Origin: an uncultured virus (IMG/VR IMGVR_UViG_3300021093_000051)
Lineage: Duplodnaviria; Heunggongvirae; Uroviricota; Caudoviricetes
Length of the DNA stretch: 20,000 nt
IMG/VR virus record: IMGVR_UViG_3300021093_000051
Coordinates: 54,605-74,604 of that record
Reading direction: 5' to 3' (one strand)
Shown: positions 1,392 to 15,572 of the stretch, piece after piece
How the letters are laid out: every line of letters begins with the position of its first letter
Position numbering within the stretch: the first letter of the stretch is position 1
Notes under the pieces: model-generated
What the model saw: the letters and a program-made list of their open reading frames with translations, nothing else
What the model was told of the DNA's origin: nothing
The model's database searches: none
Translations under genes and position numbers: made by a program

Positions 1392-3161
1392 CTAGATGTT
1401 ATCTTCTCCAGCAGGGGTTGCTTTTTCAATATGAGTAACGTATCTTTCTTCTGGTATGTCTACTTCCTTTATTAATTTAGGATTATTAGGATCAGTATAA
1501 TCCATTAATTTGACTTTCATCGTGCCTTTTTCTGTTCCAGGTCCAACTACGAATATTTTTTTCGTATCAGTTCCCCCTACTTCATTCGGTGGAGTCGATT
1601 TGTCAAATATTACGATCTCTTGTTCAGGCTTTAATTCCTTAAACTTGATTCGGTTTTCCTTGACTGCACGATTTGCCTTTTTCTCAGCCTTTGCTGCCGC
1701 TTTTTCTTCAGCTTTACCTTCTCCTTTTCCCCAACCAATTGACGTAACTAGTCCAGGCGATTTCCAACTAGCTGCGACCGTATACTCTTTTATTGTAAGC
1801 GCATCGTAGTTTAGAGTAACCTCACCAGTCTCAGTCACATTGATCCATTTAGTAGGTAGTTTTCTTTTTTCAACCCTGTCTCCAGTTATAAAGAAGTTAA
1901 CTACCCTCCATTCAGGTGCAGTATTTACATTATTATCTGGTTGAACTACTGCCGGTGTCCCAGCCAATGAGACCTGTACGCCCTTCGGCGCTCCAATTTT
2001 TGTAACAAACCATTGGGCTCGTCTTGTTGCAAGTGCCATGTTCTGTTTATCATCTCTTGCGCCAGCAGTCCATTCCCACGATGCGGATCCTTGAACCTTA
2101 ATCGAAGTTATTTTTGAATACTGTCCAAGGATCTGGTTCAATGCTTCAAGGATAGCTTTTTCCTTTGTTGGATCTGGTTTATCCTTTCCTTGACCAAATA
2201 GTGCATCTAATCCGGGCAATGATGTCAATTCATCAGTTACTTGAACTGCCTCTTCTCCTCCTTCTATTGGAACGCTTACCGTAGTCGTTGTAAATTCTGT
2301 ATATGGCTGGCCTCCTCCTTTAACAAAATCAGTCACAGTATAGAAAACAAACTTCTTCGTAAGGCTTTCATTCAGCAATCGTTTCGGGTCCTCTGGGAAA
2401 TCCTTAGGTGTAAGTCCTCCCCCAAGTGAACTTGATGCTGGAGGAGAGCTCATATTATACTTTAAGTTTGATCCGTCCCACATAAGAATTGTTTGACTCA
2501 AATTAGCTCCATTTATATAACTGGCCCGATATGGCCAGTACGCTTTTCCCATAGTTTTTTTGGTTTCGTCCATATCAAAAGCCGGCTTATCGTTTAATTT
2601 CATATCCTTCATCCTCTCAATCGTCAATCCATCCGCATAAACCTTCGAAGTTACTGTTTCAAGTTGTTTAAACATTTCCTGATGATTTAGTGCGCTTATT
2701 GATTTACATATAGCTGGAGCGGACGTCCATATTACCTCAGTTTTATTTAACGTCGGAACCTTTAAACCTTTAGCCGTTTTTATTTGAATCGATTTAACTG
2801 TTGTATTAAACGTTGGCTTTATGTATTTTTCGTTAGAATTAGTTTTAGTAAATTCAGCTACCGCCGATCCAACGTCAACAGTTAAGCTACTTGTAAAATG
2901 ATTTTTTGTAAGGTTGTCAGTCGATGCCGTCATCCAACCGACCTTAGCATTCTGTTTCCATTCATTAATAAATGTAGCATATGCTTCTCCCATTGCTGTA
3001 GCTATGTCCCCCATTTTACTAACCAGTGATTCAATGCTAGTTTGTGAATTCACTAAGTTTGCAACAGTCTGCTCATTGACCGCTTCTCGGTATCGTTCAT
3101 CATTCACAACTGATTCGTGAAGAGTTCTCCACATATTATAGTTTAATAAATAACCACCCAT
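1392..3161 (-). CDS. Large late protein with an OmpA-like (peptidoglycan-binding) domain; putative internal virion protein
   Basis: 589 aa. The segment LFGQGKDK...IKVQGSAS...NMALATRRA...WRVVNFFI follows the OmpA_C pattern (F..; IxGxx; NxxLSxxRA; RRVEI). No signal peptide. Late motif at 3190-3181. Confidence 0.7.
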   Translation of the reverse strand: MGGYLLNYNMWRTLHESVVNDERYREAVNEQTVANLVNSQTSIESLVSKMGDIATAMGEAYATFINEWKQNAKVGWMTASTDNLTKNHFTSSLTVDVGSAVAEFTKTNSNEKYIKPTFNTTVKSIQIKTAKGLKVPTLNKTEVIWTSAPAICKSISALNHQEMFKQLETVTSKVYADGLTIERMKDMKLNDKPAFDMDETKKTMGKAYWPYRASYINGANLSQTILMWDGSNLKYNMSSPPASSSLGGGLTPKDFPEDPKRLLNESLTKKFVFYTVTDFVKGGGQPYTEFTTTTVSVPIEGGEEAVQVTDELTSLPGLDALFGQGKDKPDPTKEKAILEALNQILGQYSKITSIKVQGSASWEWTAGARDDKQNMALATRRAQWFVTKIGAPKGVQVSLAGTPAVVQPDNNVNTAPEWRVVNFFITGDRVEKRKLPTKWINVTETGEVTLNYDALTIKEYTVAASWKSPGLVTSIGWGKGEGKAEEKAAAKAEKKANRAVKENRIKFKELKPEQEIVIFDKSTPPNEVGGTDTKKIFVVGPGTEKGTMKVKLMDYTDPNNPKLIKEVDIPEERYVTHIEKATPAGEDNI

Positions 3162-3180
3162 TTTTAAATAAGTTTTTTAG

Positions 3181-3190
3181 TTATTTATCT
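3181..3190 (-). promoter_or_regulatory. Putative late promoter AGATAAATAA
   Basis: 20 nt upstream of ATG 3161; same 10-mer as the other copies. Confidence 0.7.
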
Positions 3191-3224: not shown

Positions 3225-4016
3225 ATGCCAGAACTTGCAGAGATAAAAATAATGGCGGATTTCATAAATCTGGCCAGTAGAGAAAAGAGTTTTACTACCG
3301 TTGCCTTTTCAGAAAGCGCTATGAATAGAAAACTAGGTATAGTCCAGCCGACTGACCTTCAGATATTCAGAATCACAGCTGAGTCTCGGGGCAAGGAACT
3401 CATGCTCTCCTTGATCCAGGGAGATCAGGTTTTCATGAAGATCAGCTGCTCGATGGGCATGTCCGGCCATTGGGCGATGTGTCACCGAGATGATGTGCCC
3501 AAGCACACCCACATGAAATTTAATACGACCGATCAACTCAGTCTCTGCCTGGTCGACACTCGTCGATTTGCTAGGTGGAAGGTCGCATCCGACTGGTCCC
3601 AAAATCGTGGGCCCTGCCCAGTACACGAACCTAATCCTTTTAGGGAGAATATCCTCGCTAACCTAGGCAAGAAGGAATTCGATAAACCGATCCACCTGGT
3701 GCTCATGAACCAACAATATTTTAATGGAATCGGCAACTATCTTAGATCCGAGATTATGTTCCATGCCTCACAAGATCCTTTTGCTGATGCCCGTACTGCA
3801 CTCACACGAAATCCTTCAATACTCGATCTTTGTGAAAGGTTACCTAGGGAAGCTTACTTCCTAGGTGGAGGTCAGCTCAAGGACTGGCAAAACCCGTTTG
3901 AGGTTCCTGAAGGAGGATTTGACGAGTGGATGCAGTGTTACGGCAAGGGCAAATGGTTTACCGACAAGAACGGTCGACGTATGTGGTATCATCCCATCCA
4001 GCTTGAAACCAGTTAA
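3225..4016 (+). CDS. nei: Fpg/Nei-family DNA glycosylase/AP lyase, NEIL1 (endonuclease VIII-like 1) type
   Basis: Catalytic N-terminal PELAE, RGKEL (catalytic Lys), GMSG, DTRRF, H2TH motif FNGIGNYLRSEI, and a zincless finger DKNGRRMWY. Confidence 0.95.
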   Translation: MPELAEIKIMADFINLASREKSFTTVAFSESAMNRKLGIVQPTDLQIFRITAESRGKELMLSLIQGDQVFMKISCSMGMSGHWAMCHRDDVPKHTHMKFNTTDQLSLCLVDTRRFARWKVASDWSQNRGPCPVHEPNPFRENILANLGKKEFDKPIHLVLMNQQYFNGIGNYLRSEIMFHASQDPFADARTALTRNPSILDLCERLPREAYFLGGGQLKDWQNPFEVPEGGFDEWMQCYGKGKWFTDKNGRRMWYHPIQLETS

Positions 4017-10809: not shown

Positions 10810-10840
10810 AAAAAAAGAGGACTCTTTCGAATCCTCTTTT
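10810..10840 (-). terminator. Rho-independent terminator of the major capsid gene
   Basis: The minus strand reads GAGGAUUC-GAAA-GAGUCCUC-UUUUUUU, a GNRA-capped stem plus U tract. Confidence 0.9.
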
Positions 10841-10861: not shown

Positions 10862-12517
10862 TTATACTCCACTTTCTACAAATGAAGTAGAACCTGTAAG
10901 AACTCCAATAGCCTCTGGATCGATCTCCATGCTTACGTATTGAGTTTCAGGGTGCCATCCTGCTTCAGTAATCGCGTATCTTGATTTCATACCGATTTTT
11001 GGAGAGAATGTTCCTTCAGAAATAGTCTGAAGAGATTCAGCCATGATGTATGGCATGAATTTAACACCTGGTTCTTCGTCTGCTCCTTTACGCCCGATCG
11101 CAAGTCTAGAATCTCCCCAAGACAGGTTAGGGTCAACATAAACTTGTACACCGTAAACTTTACCAGCTGGGTAAAGGTTACCTGCAACTCCACCAATATC
11201 GGTTGGAACTTGTGCGATTGAGTAACCAGCAACATCAGCCATTGCAGAAGCAATACGTCCGTTAGTTACTAAGAAAGTACCAGCTCCGAAACGTCCCCTA
11301 TGGTAGATTAAGTTAGCAAGTTCAAGAACTTTAGTAACTAATCTTCTTTGTAGAGTAGATGTGTTATCGAATCCACCAGCAGTCAAGTCAAGGTTAGTTA
11401 CACCTGCACCTTCAACTAATGCAACTTCAGCAGAGTGAACGTCAGCTAATTGTAATACTCGGTCAACTAATCTTTTGTTGATTGATTGAGCTAAGTCATT
11501 AACTGCTACGTTTTCTAACATAGAGATAACGTCATAATTCCAAACTCTGTTTAAGTCTTGGATTTGCTCAACAGTTGCAGAGATAGACACTTGGTCAGTC
11601 TCAGCCTCAACAAACTTAGTGAACATTCTTAATCCCATTTGACGGAATTTAGAGTTTTCACCAGCCTCTCTCCTCATTGATCCAGGAACGTCTCCTGTAG
11701 CAGGAAGGTAAGAACCGTTGAATGCAGTAGTTGCGTAATCTGCATCAGATACAGATGTGAAACCAGAGATGTGGTTTTCCAATGCAGAAACTAGAGAAAC
11801 TCCAGTTGCAACGCCAGAAGAAGTATCACCATTGATAGTGATAGTGTTAGTAATGATTGATGAAGCTAATGTGTTAGTACCGTTATCTTCGACTACTTTA
11901 GCGATCAACTGACCGTCAACGCGAGAGTAACCTACGAATGTTAAATCAAAATCACCAGCACCAGATCCACCAACTGTGATTACATCACCAGGAGCTGGAA
12001 CCGTGCTGAAAGAAGCTGAAGTAACTCCTTCGATTTTAACTAAATATGGATCGAAATCACCAGCACCAGTTCTACCACCTGCATATAAATAATCCAAGTA
12101 AGGAAGGAATCCAACTGGAGAATCCATAGGGATAACTGGAACTAGGTCGAAACCAATAGTTTTTGCAGCTACTTGGATAGCAACTGGAAGAAGAGATGGG
12201 AATTTATCGCCAGATCCGTTTCCTGTAGCAGTGTAGCTGTTTTTTACACCAGCTGAAAAAGGAGTACCTCCGTTATTGAAAGTAGGTGCTTGTGGATTTC
12301 CCATAAAACCACCAAGAGAACCTGGAGTTTGGAAAAATACACCTGGAGCAGTGGATTCAAAGATAGGTGTAGTGTTATCAAAGATCGCGTGGTTGTGAGC
12401 GTACTCAGCTAACCATGGAGTCTTAGCAACATCAGCACCGTAACCTTCTAAAATCGGCTGCCATGTGTTCGTTAAGCGATTGTCGCTTGAACGTCTGAAA
12501 ATTTTAGTACGTGCCAT
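10862..12517 (-). CDS. gp23: Major capsid protein, T4 gp23-like
   Basis: DLVPVIPMDSPVG, TVEQIQDL, INKRLV, RGRFGAGTFLVTN, VYVDP, FMPYI, PKIGMKSRYA. Directly downstream of the prohead protease. Confidence 0.95.
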   Translation of the reverse strand: MARTKIFRRSSDNRLTNTWQPILEGYGADVAKTPWLAEYAHNHAIFDNTTPIFESTAPGVFFQTPGSLGGFMGNPQAPTFNNGGTPFSAGVKNSYTATGNGSGDKFPSLLPVAIQVAAKTIGFDLVPVIPMDSPVGFLPYLDYLYAGGRTGAGDFDPYLVKIEGVTSASFSTVPAPGDVITVGGSGAGDFDLTFVGYSRVDGQLIAKVVEDNGTNTLASSIITNTITINGDTSSGVATGVSLVSALENHISGFTSVSDADYATTAFNGSYLPATGDVPGSMRREAGENSKFRQMGLRMFTKFVEAETDQVSISATVEQIQDLNRVWNYDVISMLENVAVNDLAQSINKRLVDRVLQLADVHSAEVALVEGAGVTNLDLTAGGFDNTSTLQRRLVTKVLELANLIYHRGRFGAGTFLVTNGRIASAMADVAGYSIAQVPTDIGGVAGNLYPAGKVYGVQVYVDPNLSWGDSRLAIGRKGADEEPGVKFMPYIMAESLQTISEGTFSPKIGMKSRYAITEAGWHPETQYVSMEIDPEAIGVLTGSTSFVESGV

Positions 12518-12544: not shown

Positions 12545-13786
12545 TTACAATCTAGAACCTGCGTTTCTCAACATCGTTTCTAAGTAACCTTGAGAGTAAC
12601 CTCTCTGCATCTCAACAACCTGATTTACAGGTATTAGGCCTTCTGTACTTTGGCTTTCGTTGAGTTGTTGCGTTATTTTTGTGTTGTATTTTTGTGCTTC
12701 AATTCTTTCATTGATTCCTCTCATATCTAAGTCATCCCAAAATGCTTTAACTTGGTATGGAGTGTTTACAGTATAAAGCTGTGCTTTTGCATGAACTTTA
12801 CTTTGTTCTTTCTCATTCATCTCGCTCCAGATAGCTTTATATTCTGCTGGCATGAATCTAATATAAGTAGGAATGTTTTGCTCTTTATTGTTTACTACTG
12901 CTTCCATGATTCCAACGATATCGTTTTCGTTAAACCATACAGATCCGTTAAGAGCTTCAACAATCGCTTGTTTAGTGTCTGATTGTAAGTTAAAGAATAC
13001 TTTCTTGTTTGCCTCTCCCATAACTTTTAAGAAAGGGTGTTTGCTTTCAAGAACTGCTTTAGAAGACTTATCGTTTACTTCAGTGATCACTTGGTCAACC
13101 TTAGAGATTAGGTGATCGATTGAAGACTCATTTAATTTAGAAACCGATCCAAGAACGTTTCTTCTACCTACAGTAGTTCCTTCTCCTAAAGACTCAGCGA
13201 TATATTCAGAGTAACCGATAGATTGGCCTAACTTTTCAGCAACATACTGAGAATATTCTCTATTTAAGTTGATGTTTTCTGAAAGGTATTCTCCGAACTC
13301 GATAGAACGGTTAGTCCCTTCAGCAACGTATTCAACATACTGTAATCCCTTGTCTAATTCTTCAGCCAAGTAATTTTGGTATTTAATAGAGTTGTTTACG
13401 TTTTCTTTAATGTATTCTGCGTAGTTAATTGACTCATTCAATTTAGATGAAAGGTAATCTTGATAGTTAACTGACTGGTTTAATTTTTCTCCTAAATAAG
13501 AAGAATAATCGATTGAGTTGTTAACTGTCTCAGAAACGTGCTCAGTATATCTAACTGACTCGTTTAGTTTGTGAGAAAGATAATCAGCGAAATTGATCAC
13601 TCCTTCTAACGATTCTGCTAAATAATTTACGAATCTAATTAATTCAGGATTGCTTGATCCATTATTTGATTGTGCAGACTCTAAAACAGACTTGTGATTC
13701 TTAAGTTCTTTTTTAATTCCATTGAATTGTGTTTTAAGAACTTCTGAATATTTGTCCATTTGTTCTTTTGTTACAAACTCGGCCAT
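12545..13786 (-). CDS. Putative nested scaffold protein from an in-frame internal ATG (413 aa)
   Basis: ATG at codon 245 preceded by CAAAAAAATAACAACACA, with an exact AGATAAATAA motif 65 nt upstream inside the gene. Confidence 0.6.
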   Translation of the reverse strand: MAEFVTKEQMDKYSEVLKTQFNGIKKELKNHKSVLESAQSNNGSSNPELIRFVNYLAESLEGVINFADYLSHKLNESVRYTEHVSETVNNSIDYSSYLGEKLNQSVNYQDYLSSKLNESINYAEYIKENVNNSIKYQNYLAEELDKGLQYVEYVAEGTNRSIEFGEYLSENINLNREYSQYVAEKLGQSIGYSEYIAESLGEGTTVGRRNVLGSVSKLNESSIDHLISKVDQVITEVNDKSSKAVLESKHPFLKVMGEANKKVFFNLQSDTKQAIVEALNGSVWFNENDIVGIMEAVVNNKEQNIPTYIRFMPAEYKAIWSEMNEKEQSKVHAKAQLYTVNTPYQVKAFWDDLDMRGINERIEAQKYNTKITQQLNESQSTEGLIPVNQVVEMQRGYSQGYLETMLRNAGSRL

Positions 13787-14518
13787 TGTGTTGTTATTTT
13801 TTTGTTCTTGCAAAGTCCCTTGGAACTGTGTTCCTGAACCATTTTCTAATTTATTTATCTTATAGACTTTAAAATTATCTGCAAAGTTTAAATTTTCTGA
13901 AATATCCATTAGTCCAGACTTATGAACAAAAGAGTTTTCCTTCATCGAGTTATAACTCTCAGTGATCATTGAAAAATCATTCTTTAGGGATTCACTAACC
14001 GTTTTACGTAAGATCGCATCCGTGAATCCAGGCTCTCCGACCAAGTCATAAGTAAAGATTCTCTGTAACTTAACGTGTCCGCTCTCACCTACCTGTCCAG
14101 CCGCTCTTGAAGAAACTGATAATTGAACTCCTCCATCGAGTAAAGCTTTCGCTAATTTACCGTGTGGAGTGTTTTCTAAGAGTCTAACCTTGATATAAAC
14201 CTTATCTCCTCCGTCATAGTTAATACTCTCAATGATGTGAGAGGCTTCGCTTAATTTTGGTTCGAAATGTTGAGGATGGTCTACCGTTCCTACTAATTGT
14301 CTCTTAGAGATTTTTTCTTGAAGATAAGTAAGATGAGGTAAGTATTCCGATTTTTCATATACTCGTCGGTTGTTATTCATTTGACCGAATACCGCACATA
14401 CTCCTTCAAGGACAGTGCCAGTGTTAGATGAATCCCTTACTTGAAGTTTTTCACCCACGTTTTCAACGATTAATACCCAATCGTTGTTGTTAATTTGTGC
14501 TGAATTTAATTTTGACAA
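12545..14518 (-). CDS. gp21: Prohead core protease (T4 gp21-like) fused to a C-terminal scaffold domain
   Basis: NNNRRVY, GTVDHP (His), SSRAAG (Ser) and TYDLVGEPGF (Asp) in the first ~170 aa, followed by a long helical repeat region. TTG start. Confidence 0.9.
   Translation of the reverse strand: MSKLNSAQINNNDWVLIVENVGEKLQVRDSSNTGTVLEGVCAVFGQMNNNRRVYEKSEYLPHLTYLQEKISKRQLVGTVDHPQHFEPKLSEASHIIESINYDGGDKVYIKVRLLENTPHGKLAKALLDGGVQLSVSSRAAGQVGESGHVKLQRIFTYDLVGEPGFTDAILRKTVSESLKNDFSMITESYNSMKENSFVHKSGLMDISENLNFADNFKVYKINKLENGSGTQFQGTLQEQKNNNTMAEFVTKEQMDKYSEVLKTQFNGIKKELKNHKSVLESAQSNNGSSNPELIRFVNYLAESLEGVINFADYLSHKLNESVRYTEHVSETVNNSIDYSSYLGEKLNQSVNYQDYLSSKLNESINYAEYIKENVNNSIKYQNYLAEELDKGLQYVEYVAEGTNRSIEFGEYLSENINLNREYSQYVAEKLGQSIGYSEYIAESLGEGTTVGRRNVLGSVSKLNESSIDHLISKVDQVITEVNDKSSKAVLESKHPFLKVMGEANKKVFFNLQSDTKQAIVEALNGSVWFNENDIVGIMEAVVNNKEQNIPTYIRFMPAEYKAIWSEMNEKEQSKVHAKAQLYTVNTPYQVKAFWDDLDMRGINERIEAQKYNTKITQQLNESQSTEGLIPVNQVVEMQRGYSQGYLETMLRNAGSRL
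13172..13633 (-). repeat. Eleven tandem 14-aa (42-nt) protein repeats
   Basis: FVNYLAESLEGVIN / FADYLSHKLNESVR / YTEHVSETVNNSID / YSSYLGEKLNQSVN / YQDYLSSKLNESIN / YAEYIKENVNNSIK / YQNYLAEELDKGLQ / YVEYVAEGTNRSIE / FGEYLSENINLNRE / YSQYVAEKLGQSIG / YSEYIAESLGEGTT. Confidence 0.9.
13851..13860 (-). promoter_or_regulatory. Putative intragenic late promoter AGATAAATAA
   Basis: Exact copy of the motif, in the linker between the protease domain and the scaffold ATG. Confidence 0.55.
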
Positions 14519-14536
14519 AGCCCAAAATATTTTTTA

Positions 14537-14546
14537 TTATTTATTA
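14537..14546 (-). promoter_or_regulatory. Putative late promoter TAATAAATAA
   Basis: About 19 nt upstream of the protease TTG. Followed by TAAAAA, as are the copies at 807-816 and 10792-10801. Confidence 0.65.
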
Positions 14547-14564
14547 AGGGCTCTTTTAAACTTT

Positions 14565-15572
14565 TTAAGTTTTATTTTCGCAATTTGATAATATTGCTTT
14601 TAATTTAGTTAAATCTTTGTTTGATAACTCATCAGTTTGCGGCAGAGTCACGTTAAACTTTACTAAATACTCTCCTAATTTACCCTGTTCATCCAGTATG
14701 CCCTCATTGGGTATGGAGAACTTAAGGTTTGATGCCGATCTGGGACTATTAAAGTCGGCCTCATATTTTTTACTTACAATCGTCTCTATCTTGATCTTTT
14801 CTTCTGTGAACACGACCTTAGATAACGGAAGATCGACCGTCTGTACTATCTTGTTACCCTCAATCTTAATGTTTTCAGGCACCACTAGTTCTAGCGTCAC
14901 GTGTAGGTCTCCCATTAGAGGTACTTGTTCTATCTCTCCCCATATGTTTAATTGGGTGATAACATCCTCATTTCCCAAGCCAGGTACTCTAGCGGATATT
15001 ATGTAGGCTCCACTGTCCTTCTTAATCAAGATATACTTTTTTCTAAGATCGATCGTGATGTTAATCTCCTTCTCCTCCTCTATCTTATCGAACGTAAGCA
15101 TGTTACCCGACTTGCCCGTATAATTTATCTTTTCTCGCGTAAAACCAATCTCTATCTTTTTACCCAATAAGGCGTCCTTTAGTTCTATTTTATCGTGCAC
15201 ATAAAGGTTTAGGTGATCAGTTTTAGGCTGAGCTGGGTGAGTTCGGTGTTGGGTCTTCTTAGCTCTATCGTTAGACCTTCTCCTAAAATCCGCGTCTGCG
15301 AAGTTTCTCACGAAATCATCGAAACCAAAACCCGCGCTCTCGTAACTAGAAGACCAGTTATTTGTTGAGTTAGTTTTCTTATCGTATTCGCCTCTCTTTT
15401 TCTCATCTGAAAGGACAGTATATGAGTCTGAGATCTTTTTAAATAGCTCTTCCGATTCCTTGTTGCCGTTTGTCTTGTCCGGATGGTATTTTACTGCAAG
15501 CTTACGGTAGGCTTTTTTGATTTCTTCTTGAGTGGCAGTCTTAGGGACTCCTAAGTTCGCATAGTGATCCAT
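14565..15572 (-). CDS. dnaJ: DnaJ/Hsp40 co-chaperone (class B-like, no zinc finger)
   Basis: J domain DHYANLGV...[19 protein letters not shown] region GFGFDDF, and C-terminal motifs [26 protein letters not shown]. No CxxCxGxG repeats. Confidence 0.92.

Follow-up and report, generated by a model that had tools for sequence, protein, structure and literature searches.

Assembly of a T4-type phage head needs far more scaffold than protease: the counts given in PMC5694885 for the T4 core are about 576 copies of gp22 and about 100 of gp21. How could a phage set such a ratio if protease and scaffold were made as a single fused protein, which by itself forces them to 1:1? This question is raised by a gene in a 20,000-nucleotide (nt) stretch of an uncultured tailed virus (IMG/VR record IMGVR_UViG_3300021093_000051, positions 54,605 to 74,604). 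The stretch, referred to here as the window, is the final 20 kb of a 74.6-kb contig, 37% G+C. On its minus strand, an open reading frame (ORF) of 657 amino acids (aa) joins an S77-type head protease to a long helical part that resembles a scaffold, and the major capsid gene follows. A unit nested within this frame would set the ratio. The locus probably makes a little protease-scaffold and much free scaffold, the latter co-transcribed with the capsid gene. The elements on which this answer depends are listed below, numbered from the first letter of the window.

12545..14518, minus strand: full-length ORF of 657 aa, comprising S77 protease, linker and scaffold-like part, with a TTG start at 14518-14516.
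12545..13786, minus strand: nested in-frame ORF for a predicted 413-aa scaffold-only product, from ATG 13786-13784 to the shared stop.
13851..13858, minus strand: P2, a predicted internal late-promoter box ATAAATAA, made up of Ile221 ATA, Asn222 AAT and AA, and conserved in all loci compared.
13787..13804, minus strand: leader of the putative internal start, CAAAAAAATAACAACACA, A-rich and G-free, directly before ATG 13786.
13787..13920, minus strand: low-complexity linker, about residues 200-244, which carries P2 and the internal leader and varies in length and sequence in alignments.

The argument gains its weight from conservation, because the box taken alone in one genome is a weak signal: the contig has 24 copies of ATAAATAA on its two strands, eight of them inside ORFs on the sense strand. 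Positions 13860-13851 read AGATAAATAA, and the core ATAAATAA occupies 13858-13851. For comparison, 80 related loci of 45-100% identity were taken, which hold 66 distinct coding sequences, and 21 further distinct loci came from scans made for another purpose. The exact core is found in 80/80 loci, 37-67 nt before the internal ATG, despite the varying length and sequence of the linker. Met245, which this ATG encodes, is also present in all 80 and is invariant within an otherwise variable linker. Box and internal ATG occur together in each of the 21 further loci, with spacings of 37-70 nt. An earlier note on this DNA had singled out a late motif at 13860-13851 and an in-frame ATG at 13786 behind a leader that it likened to the capsid leader, and had named loss of motif and Met among homologues as the finding that would refute its reading. 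The motif's core has proved to be the same box that precedes 12 starts on the contig, the ATG is indeed preceded by the leader listed above, and both motif and Met persist in every homologue compared.

Codon usage indicates the level at which this conservation operates. Only three of 147 conserved degenerate columns in the 66 distinct coding sequences use a single codon, and these are Ile221, Asn222 and F496. Ile221 is ATA in all 63 sequences that have Ile at this position, with ATA making up 14.6% of the Ile codons in these genes, and Asn222 is AAT in 63/63 sequences with Asn. When pairs below 75% identity are compared at identical residues, the same codon is used at a fraction of 0.95 for residues 221-223 versus 0.53 overall. 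In three loci (L046-L048) the peptide is altered to YKMDQINN and the box is still kept. A negative control is supplied by the tail-sheath gene, whose in-frame internal ATAAATAA also encodes Ile-Asn; it is present in 1/56 distinct homologues, the one being the reference itself. Because the synonymous codons are fixed and the control box is not conserved, selection on the box is placed at the DNA level. Purifying selection of this kind evidently acts on the leader and the ATG as well as on the box. The third single-codon column, F496 (13031-13033, minus strand), is TTC in 63/63. A frameshift or transcriptional slip at the A-run CAAAAAAAT was considered as well and rejected, as relatives read GAAAATAAT or CAAAATAAC there.

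The internal ATG has a leader typical of starts in this genome. Over positions -18 to -1, 62 ATG starts average 56% A and 8% G and have no Shine-Dalgarno site, compared with 33% A and 21% G for 341 internal in-frame ATGs. The leader of ATG 13786, with 72% A and 0% G, is unique among the 341 in reaching that extreme. Its codons (C/G)AA AA(A/T), residues 238-240 (-18 to -13), have a same-codon fraction of 0.94, where the overall value is again 0.53. Conservation of the Met extends well beyond the loci described above. It stands directly before the (E/N)(F/Y)VT of the helical part in 10/10 distant fusion proteins, which share 29-47% identity with the query's scaffold part, and in 3/3 huge-phage relatives with about 30-36% identity over the whole protein. 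The homologous Met is also the first residue of two proteins, P0121 (416 aa) and P0163 (409 aa).

Two side observations concern these starts. The A-rich, G-poor leaders without Shine-Dalgarno sites that are seen contig-wide hint at a Bacteroidota-like host or translation style. The three huge-phage relatives (L147-L149; LR756500, LR745206 and LR756501; 462-735 kb) have the same fusion, their full-length frame begins at an ATG, and their capsid genes are preceded by separate TATATA-type sequences.

The identity of the box can be approached from its distribution. Intergenic DNA makes up 7% of the contig and contains 13 of the 24 copies. Twelve copies lie 15-21 nt before a start on the same strand, comprising 11 of these 13 and another where an upstream ORF ends. 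The window has seven copies where 2.14 are expected, and none of 200 shuffles reaches seven. Genes led by the box include those for the tail sheath and the protease, an endolysin-like gene and a DUF5856 gene, and upstream of the tail-sheath gene it is retained in 37/37 distinct upstream regions. As described in PMC2988020, a T4 late promoter has no -35 element and consists of an 8-bp TATA box that is placed about one helical turn ahead of the transcription start and followed by AT-rich DNA; A replacing the first T is given there as a known variant. The box found here, xATAAATA(A), fits the T4-type TATAAATA-like late promoter and equals the T4 late box except at the first base. A gp55-like late sigma of 132 aa is encoded outside the window at G000:C1:17863-18261 on the minus strand (phrog_234, 'late sigma transcription factor', E 2.2e-19). 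ATAAATAA is evidently the late-gene upstream element of this phage. Its interpretation as primarily an RNA translational enhancer was rejected, since the box is found with only about 12 of 76 ORFs and the P2 copy is 37-70 nt away from its ATG. Elsewhere in the window, two back-to-back ATAAATAA boxes, 35 nt apart, occupy 3146-3188 between the divergent genes 1392-3161 (minus strand) and 3225-4016 (plus strand); the plus-strand box of this pair is 72 nt from its gene.

One of the box-led starts is that of the full-length frame itself, where two elements overlap.

14530..14544, minus strand: P1, a predicted late-promoter box consisting of ATAAATAA (14544-14537) and TAAAAAA, whose core ends 18 nt before the TTG.
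14519..14552, minus strand: inverted repeat of AGCCC (14552-14548) and GGGCT (14523-14519) around P1, with the 3' arm abutting the TTG.

In all 79 loci that have upstream sequence, the full-length frame starts 16-21 nt after a box, and its start codon is TTG in 50, GTG in 25 and ATG in four. The choice of start is ambiguous in L072, where all candidates are non-ATG. When each distinct box-led start is counted once, 48/52 of those of the protease gene are non-ATG (35 TTG and 13 GTG, next to four ATG), compared with 33 ATG and two GTG for the other genes of these loci. The first in-frame ATG is that of M47, and a start there would truncate the conserved protease domain. The start of the full-length frame is therefore best described as conserved in a putatively weak form, TTG or GTG. 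If the fusion were the only source of scaffold, such a start would starve the phage of it.

P1 reads ATAAATAATAAAAAA; a comparison of 49 distinct upstream regions shows no variation in 13 of the 15 columns and at least 90% conservation in the other two. The arms of the repeat covary between clades, as AGCCC/GGGCT, GTCTG/CAGAC, GAGTCCT/AGGACTC and GTCTTCG/CGAAGAC; the stem is weak or absent in more distant GTG-start clades. A hairpin in this position is sensible only if transcription begins within its loop, which argues that the box is a promoter.

Transcription from either box would run towards the capsid gene, whose surroundings contribute two more features.

10862..12517, minus strand: major capsid gene, Gp23 family (E 1.8e-33), 27 nt past the shared stop.
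10813..10840, minus strand: terminator-like hairpin followed by a T run, located by a terminator scan and predicted to close the P1/P2 transcription unit.

From P1 to the capsid stop, the same scan found on this strand a single weak site of five pairs, at 12325-12312 within the capsid ORF. The gap before the capsid gene is 16-37 nt in the 71 loci whose sequence reaches the next gene. ATAAATA is absent from 68 of these gaps, and a properly placed box is missing in 70 of the 71 loci. Because the gaps lack a box, P2 would normally be the promoter nearest to the capsid gene. This pattern suggests that the capsid gene depends on upstream promoters. In two loci (L043 and L049), TATAAATA abuts the capsid ATG. 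In another, a AATAAATA box lies 20 nt before it (L015:4957-4986), and this capsid gene may have gained a promoter of its own.

The DNA leading up to the capsid gene has some further peculiarities. A second block of fixed codons is found at residues 620-627 (12638-12661, minus strand), about 120-140 nt before the capsid ATG. It reads AAC GAA AGC CAA (A/G)GT ACA GAA GG, with AAC in 59/59, AGC in 56/58 and ACA in 40/40. RNAalifold, applied to the DNA spanning the ORF's 3' end and the capsid start, returned three pairs at -1.9 kcal/mol and thus no consensus structure for this region. A small hairpin at residues 629-635 (12614-12634, minus strand), for example ACCTG-TAAAT-CAGGT, is absent in the most distant clade. 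Elsewhere it is preserved by paired changes, with arms such as TATCCG/CGGATA, GCCG/CGGT and CCCG/CGGG, and these changes also alter amino acids (P..Q to S..R).

The protein encoded by the full-length frame has a recognizable protease at its N-terminus and a repetitive helical region in its C-terminal part.

14081..14434, minus strand: protease core, residues 29-146, defined by Pfam Peptidase_S77, PDB 5jbl (T4 gp21) and invariant columns.
13175..13636, minus strand: eleven 14-residue helical repeats, residues 295-448, in the printed register.

Pfam Peptidase_S77 (PF03420) matches residues 29-146 with E 7.7e-10 and 39 bits versus a cut-off of 27, and the solved T4 gp21 chain 5jbl is matched by residues 33-146 (E 2.5e-4). 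The PHROG 207 profile, 'head maturation protease', spans residues 16-400 (profile positions 15-412 of 519), and because the match runs this far, long fused forms are included in that family already. H81, S136 and D158 are invariant in a 26-sequence alignment; H81 and S136 stand opposite Ala in 5jbl, the crystallised chain presumably being an inactivated mutant. The catalytic triad of S77 proteases consists of H, S and D (PMC5694885). Beyond the protease, the linker is modelled as coil with low predicted local distance difference test scores (pLDDT) in a weak model. An L-Q-E at residues 236-238 was ruled out as a conserved cleavage site in the linker, as it is not kept in relatives.

The final 413 aa are predicted to be almost wholly helical, although confidence in both models is low (mean pLDDT 57 and 49.8). 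In the register used above, Y-(L/V/I)-x-E is present in nine of the eleven 14-residue repeats, H-V-S-E in one and Y-L-S-H in one. The ORF has 15 occurrences of [LI]xE versus 6.2 in shuffles, and 2/2000 shuffles reach 15. (L/I)xE is the cleavage consensus of the T4 head protease, which cuts after Glu. Features expected of a scaffold are the elongated helix prediction (of low confidence), the position between the protease domain and the capsid gene, and the richness in protease sites. A predicted complex of the capsid protein with scaffold residues 222-413 scored 0.10 relative to a mark of 0.32, a result that counts neither way.

The protease-scaffold ORF leads directly to the capsid gene, with no separate scaffold gene between them. 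In this respect the earlier note had described the locus accurately, as a gp21-type protease fused to about 410 aa of helical sequence (here recognized through Pfam, 5jbl and PHROG 207) and followed by a capsid gene with no motif in its 27-nt gap, a lack now seen to be the rule among the related loci. Its designation of the virus as a T4-like phage is apt for the head module and the style of late transcription. It does not extend to the rest: in the 'phages' collection, the records that come closest belong to uncultured huge phages (about 30-36% identity) and to Lak phages. The protein is one of a large family, with 4453 matches at E <= 0.001 among 7999 candidates scored, and the top 120 matches are 644-664 aa long on contigs of up to 275 kb. 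The phage also encodes its own chaperones. A DnaJ-like gene with a J domain and a C-terminal domain (14565-15572, minus strand) is located 46 nt upstream of the protease gene on the same strand, and a GroEL-like chaperonin is encoded at G000:C1:23807-25432 on the plus strand (phrog_5725, E 1.2e-155).

These elements can be combined into a mechanism with two outputs. P1 would drive the full 657-aa frame from its weak TTG, giving little protease-scaffold, and the linker would act as a tether that carries a few protease molecules into each prohead. P2, written in the linker codons for Ile-Asn, would start a second transcript near 13846 if T4 geometry holds. The first good initiation site on this RNA would be ATG 13786, with its A-rich, G-free leader replacing a Shine-Dalgarno site, and translation from it would yield free 413-aa scaffold in excess. 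The P2 transcript would continue into the capsid gene as a second cistron and end at the terminator at 10840-10813, and the excess scaffold would be made in step with capsid protein. The hairpin at P1 may add a layer of control by silencing read-through transcripts. We infer that P2 fires as a promoter and that ATG 13786 initiates translation. The proposal of the earlier note that protease-scaffold and free scaffold are both made is supported by the weak TTG/GTG outer start and by a leader that is the best of 341 internal ATGs; an excess of scaffold over protease is what we further infer.

Several observations weigh against this mechanism. P2 consists of the 8-base core only and lacks the TAAAAAA of P1, and its ATG is 37-70 nt away, compared with the 15-21 nt that are usual for the box. 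Ile-Asn is what the internal box encodes throughout, so that the case for selection at the DNA level depends on codon choice only, and a protein-level reason for keeping both residues is still conceivable. Because the loci are related, counts such as 80/80 overstate the number of independent events. Relatedness likewise inflates the pairing of the P1 repeat arms, for which cognate arms average -6.85 kcal/mol and non-cognate arms -4.09 kcal/mol, with 0/300 permutations reaching the cognate value. The 413-aa part has no significant family match in Pfam or PHROG, to a scaffold or otherwise, and for this reason it is described here as working like a scaffold and is not filed as a gp22 homologue. 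Its assignment as the capsid scaffold is deduced from where it is encoded, from its predicted helices and its repeats, and from the lack of any other scaffold gene. P0121 and P0163, which begin at the internal Met, may be gene-calling artefacts, and a natural split looks the same as an artefact in these data: close coding contigs were not found for either protein in viral_contigs, nor for P0121 in metagenome_contigs. Finally, assembled RNA contigs from four runs cover the capsid gene in 4/4, parts of the scaffold in X1, X2 and X3, and the protease region at low depth in X3 only, with one X1 contig ending at 13811. Such contigs cannot show starts, levels or absence, the 13 runs contained small shares of the sequence, and none of this coverage is used as evidence.

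Other explanations give these elements different roles. As in lambda C/Nu3, the locus might depend on an internal translation start and have no internal promoter, with both products made from the P1 transcript. The internal ATAAATAA would then be a conserved signal of another kind in DNA or RNA, for example a pause, a processing site or a regulator-binding site. The conserved, start-like ATG and leader suit this scheme, as do the missing TAAAAAA extension and the unusual spacing of P2. On the other hand, the conserved 8-mer is identical to the box before 12 late-type genes, the phage encodes a gp55-like sigma, no other role is known for the motif, and, according to PMC2988020, T4 late promoters need just the 8-bp box and AT-rich downstream DNA. 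We consider a start without a promoter unlikely. The converse arrangement would have P2 as a real promoter that serves capsid expression, with Met245 kept for protein reasons and free scaffold released mainly when the protease cuts the fusion. It would account for the capsid gene having no box of its own in 70/71 loci, and the enrichment of [LI]xE in the ORF makes proteolytic release plausible. Yet any transcript from P2 would offer ATG 13786, with the best internal leader in the genome, as its first strong start, and neither the invariance of Met in an otherwise variable linker nor the fixed A-rich codons upstream of it is easily explained by the protein. This possibility seems quite improbable.

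A plain fusion with a single product is equally hard to credit. Here the P2 box and ATG 13786 would go unused, protease and scaffold would be made 1:1 and separated by autoproteolysis, and the conserved letters would reflect unknown constraints or ancestry. Phage P2 gpO is an example of a single-product protease-scaffold fusion (preprint 10.64898/2026.09.13.751334), and the two-output mechanism at this locus is proposed from sequence. Shared ancestry does not sit well with synonymous sites that have diverged elsewhere (the same-codon fraction of 0.53) while those of the box and leader stayed fixed, or with the tail-sheath control box, which was not kept. The conserved weak outer start would also leave such a phage short of scaffold. 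The two-output mechanism, with P2 as a promoter and ATG 13786 as a start, is the one that we continue to favor.

If this mechanism is correct, it would explain how the ratio of scaffold to protease is set in a widespread family of fused genes. It would also mean that gene callers reporting only the 657-aa product miss a major virion-assembly protein, and that a herpesvirus-style expression design sits on the phage homologue of the herpesvirus protease. More generally, a promoter box that is kept inside codons can be detected purely by the conservation of synonymous sites.

Nested protease-scaffold genes are already known from lambda, Mu, herpesviruses and Haloferax tailed virus 1 (HFTV1). Full-text literature searches found no published description of this nested arrangement for an S77 protease. 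What appears to be new is that a T4-type S77 enzyme, akin to the herpesvirus protease, is combined with a predicted promoter written into codons, an outer start that is conserved and putatively weak, and a predicted silencing hairpin. The nested genes lambda C/Nu3 and Mu I/Z are named in preprint 10.64898/2026.09.13.751334. They resemble the present locus in having an in-frame internal scaffold start, a shared C-terminus and a capsid gene just downstream. The lambda C and Mu I proteases belong to other families, ClpP/S49-like and HK97-like, whereas the enzyme here is of the S77 family. We know of no separate internal promoter described for either pair. The nested start of HFTV1 gp17/gp17.5 is reported in the same preprint to be demonstrated by Ribo-seq and mass spectrometry, with post-transcriptional control. 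HFTV1 is an archaeal virus, and the start proposed here is instead deduced from conservation and is accompanied by a promoter-like box.

T4 genes 21, 22 and 23 share with this locus an S77 protease, the order protease-scaffold-capsid and gp55-type late transcription. The scaffold-like part here is rich in (L/I)xE, the T4 cleavage consensus. In T4, genes 21 and 22 are separate; here protease and scaffold-like part are encoded as one, and no gp22 family is matched by the 413 aa of the latter. The P1 hairpin also has a counterpart in T4. In the leaders of gene e and I-TevI, as reported in PMC3014915, early read-through transcripts fold and hide the start, and late transcripts begin inside the hairpin. 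The repeat arms of gene e bracket a late box in the same manner as those at P1, where the 3' arm abuts the start codon. The hairpin described here differs from that of gene e in belonging to a head gene with a TTG start, and its stem is weak or absent in distant GTG clades.

The closest parallel is found in herpesvirus UL26/UL26.5. Both systems have an N-terminal protease and a C-terminal scaffold in one frame, and both have an in-frame scaffold-only unit with a promoter inside the fusion ORF, although the box here is a predicted promoter. The herpesvirus scaffold unit is nested and 3'-coterminal and has its own promoter. Little fusion and much scaffold would be expected here too; for Ostreid herpesvirus 1, PMC11565193 reports that transcripts of the fusion are outnumbered about 10-fold by those of the scaffold. 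Structural elements and catalytic residues are common to the herpesvirus protease and the T4-type proteases (PMC5694885, citing Cheng 2004; Liu and Mushegian 2004). It is conceivable, if rather doubtful, that the UL26/UL26.5 layout, with its assemblin-fold protease fused to the scaffold, did not originate in herpesviruses and is an old solution common to a very large clade of big phages, from which the split genes 21 and 22 of T4 are derived. Protease dose would then be controlled by three stacked devices: a weak TTG/GTG start, a hairpin that silences read-through and a promoter in two linker codons. Three differences from UL26/UL26.5 stand out in this layout, which is read from DNA letters. 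The putative promoter is a bacterial-phage gp55-type box contained in two codons, the downstream capsid gene would be co-transcribed with the scaffold, and the weak TTG/GTG outer start would add translational control.

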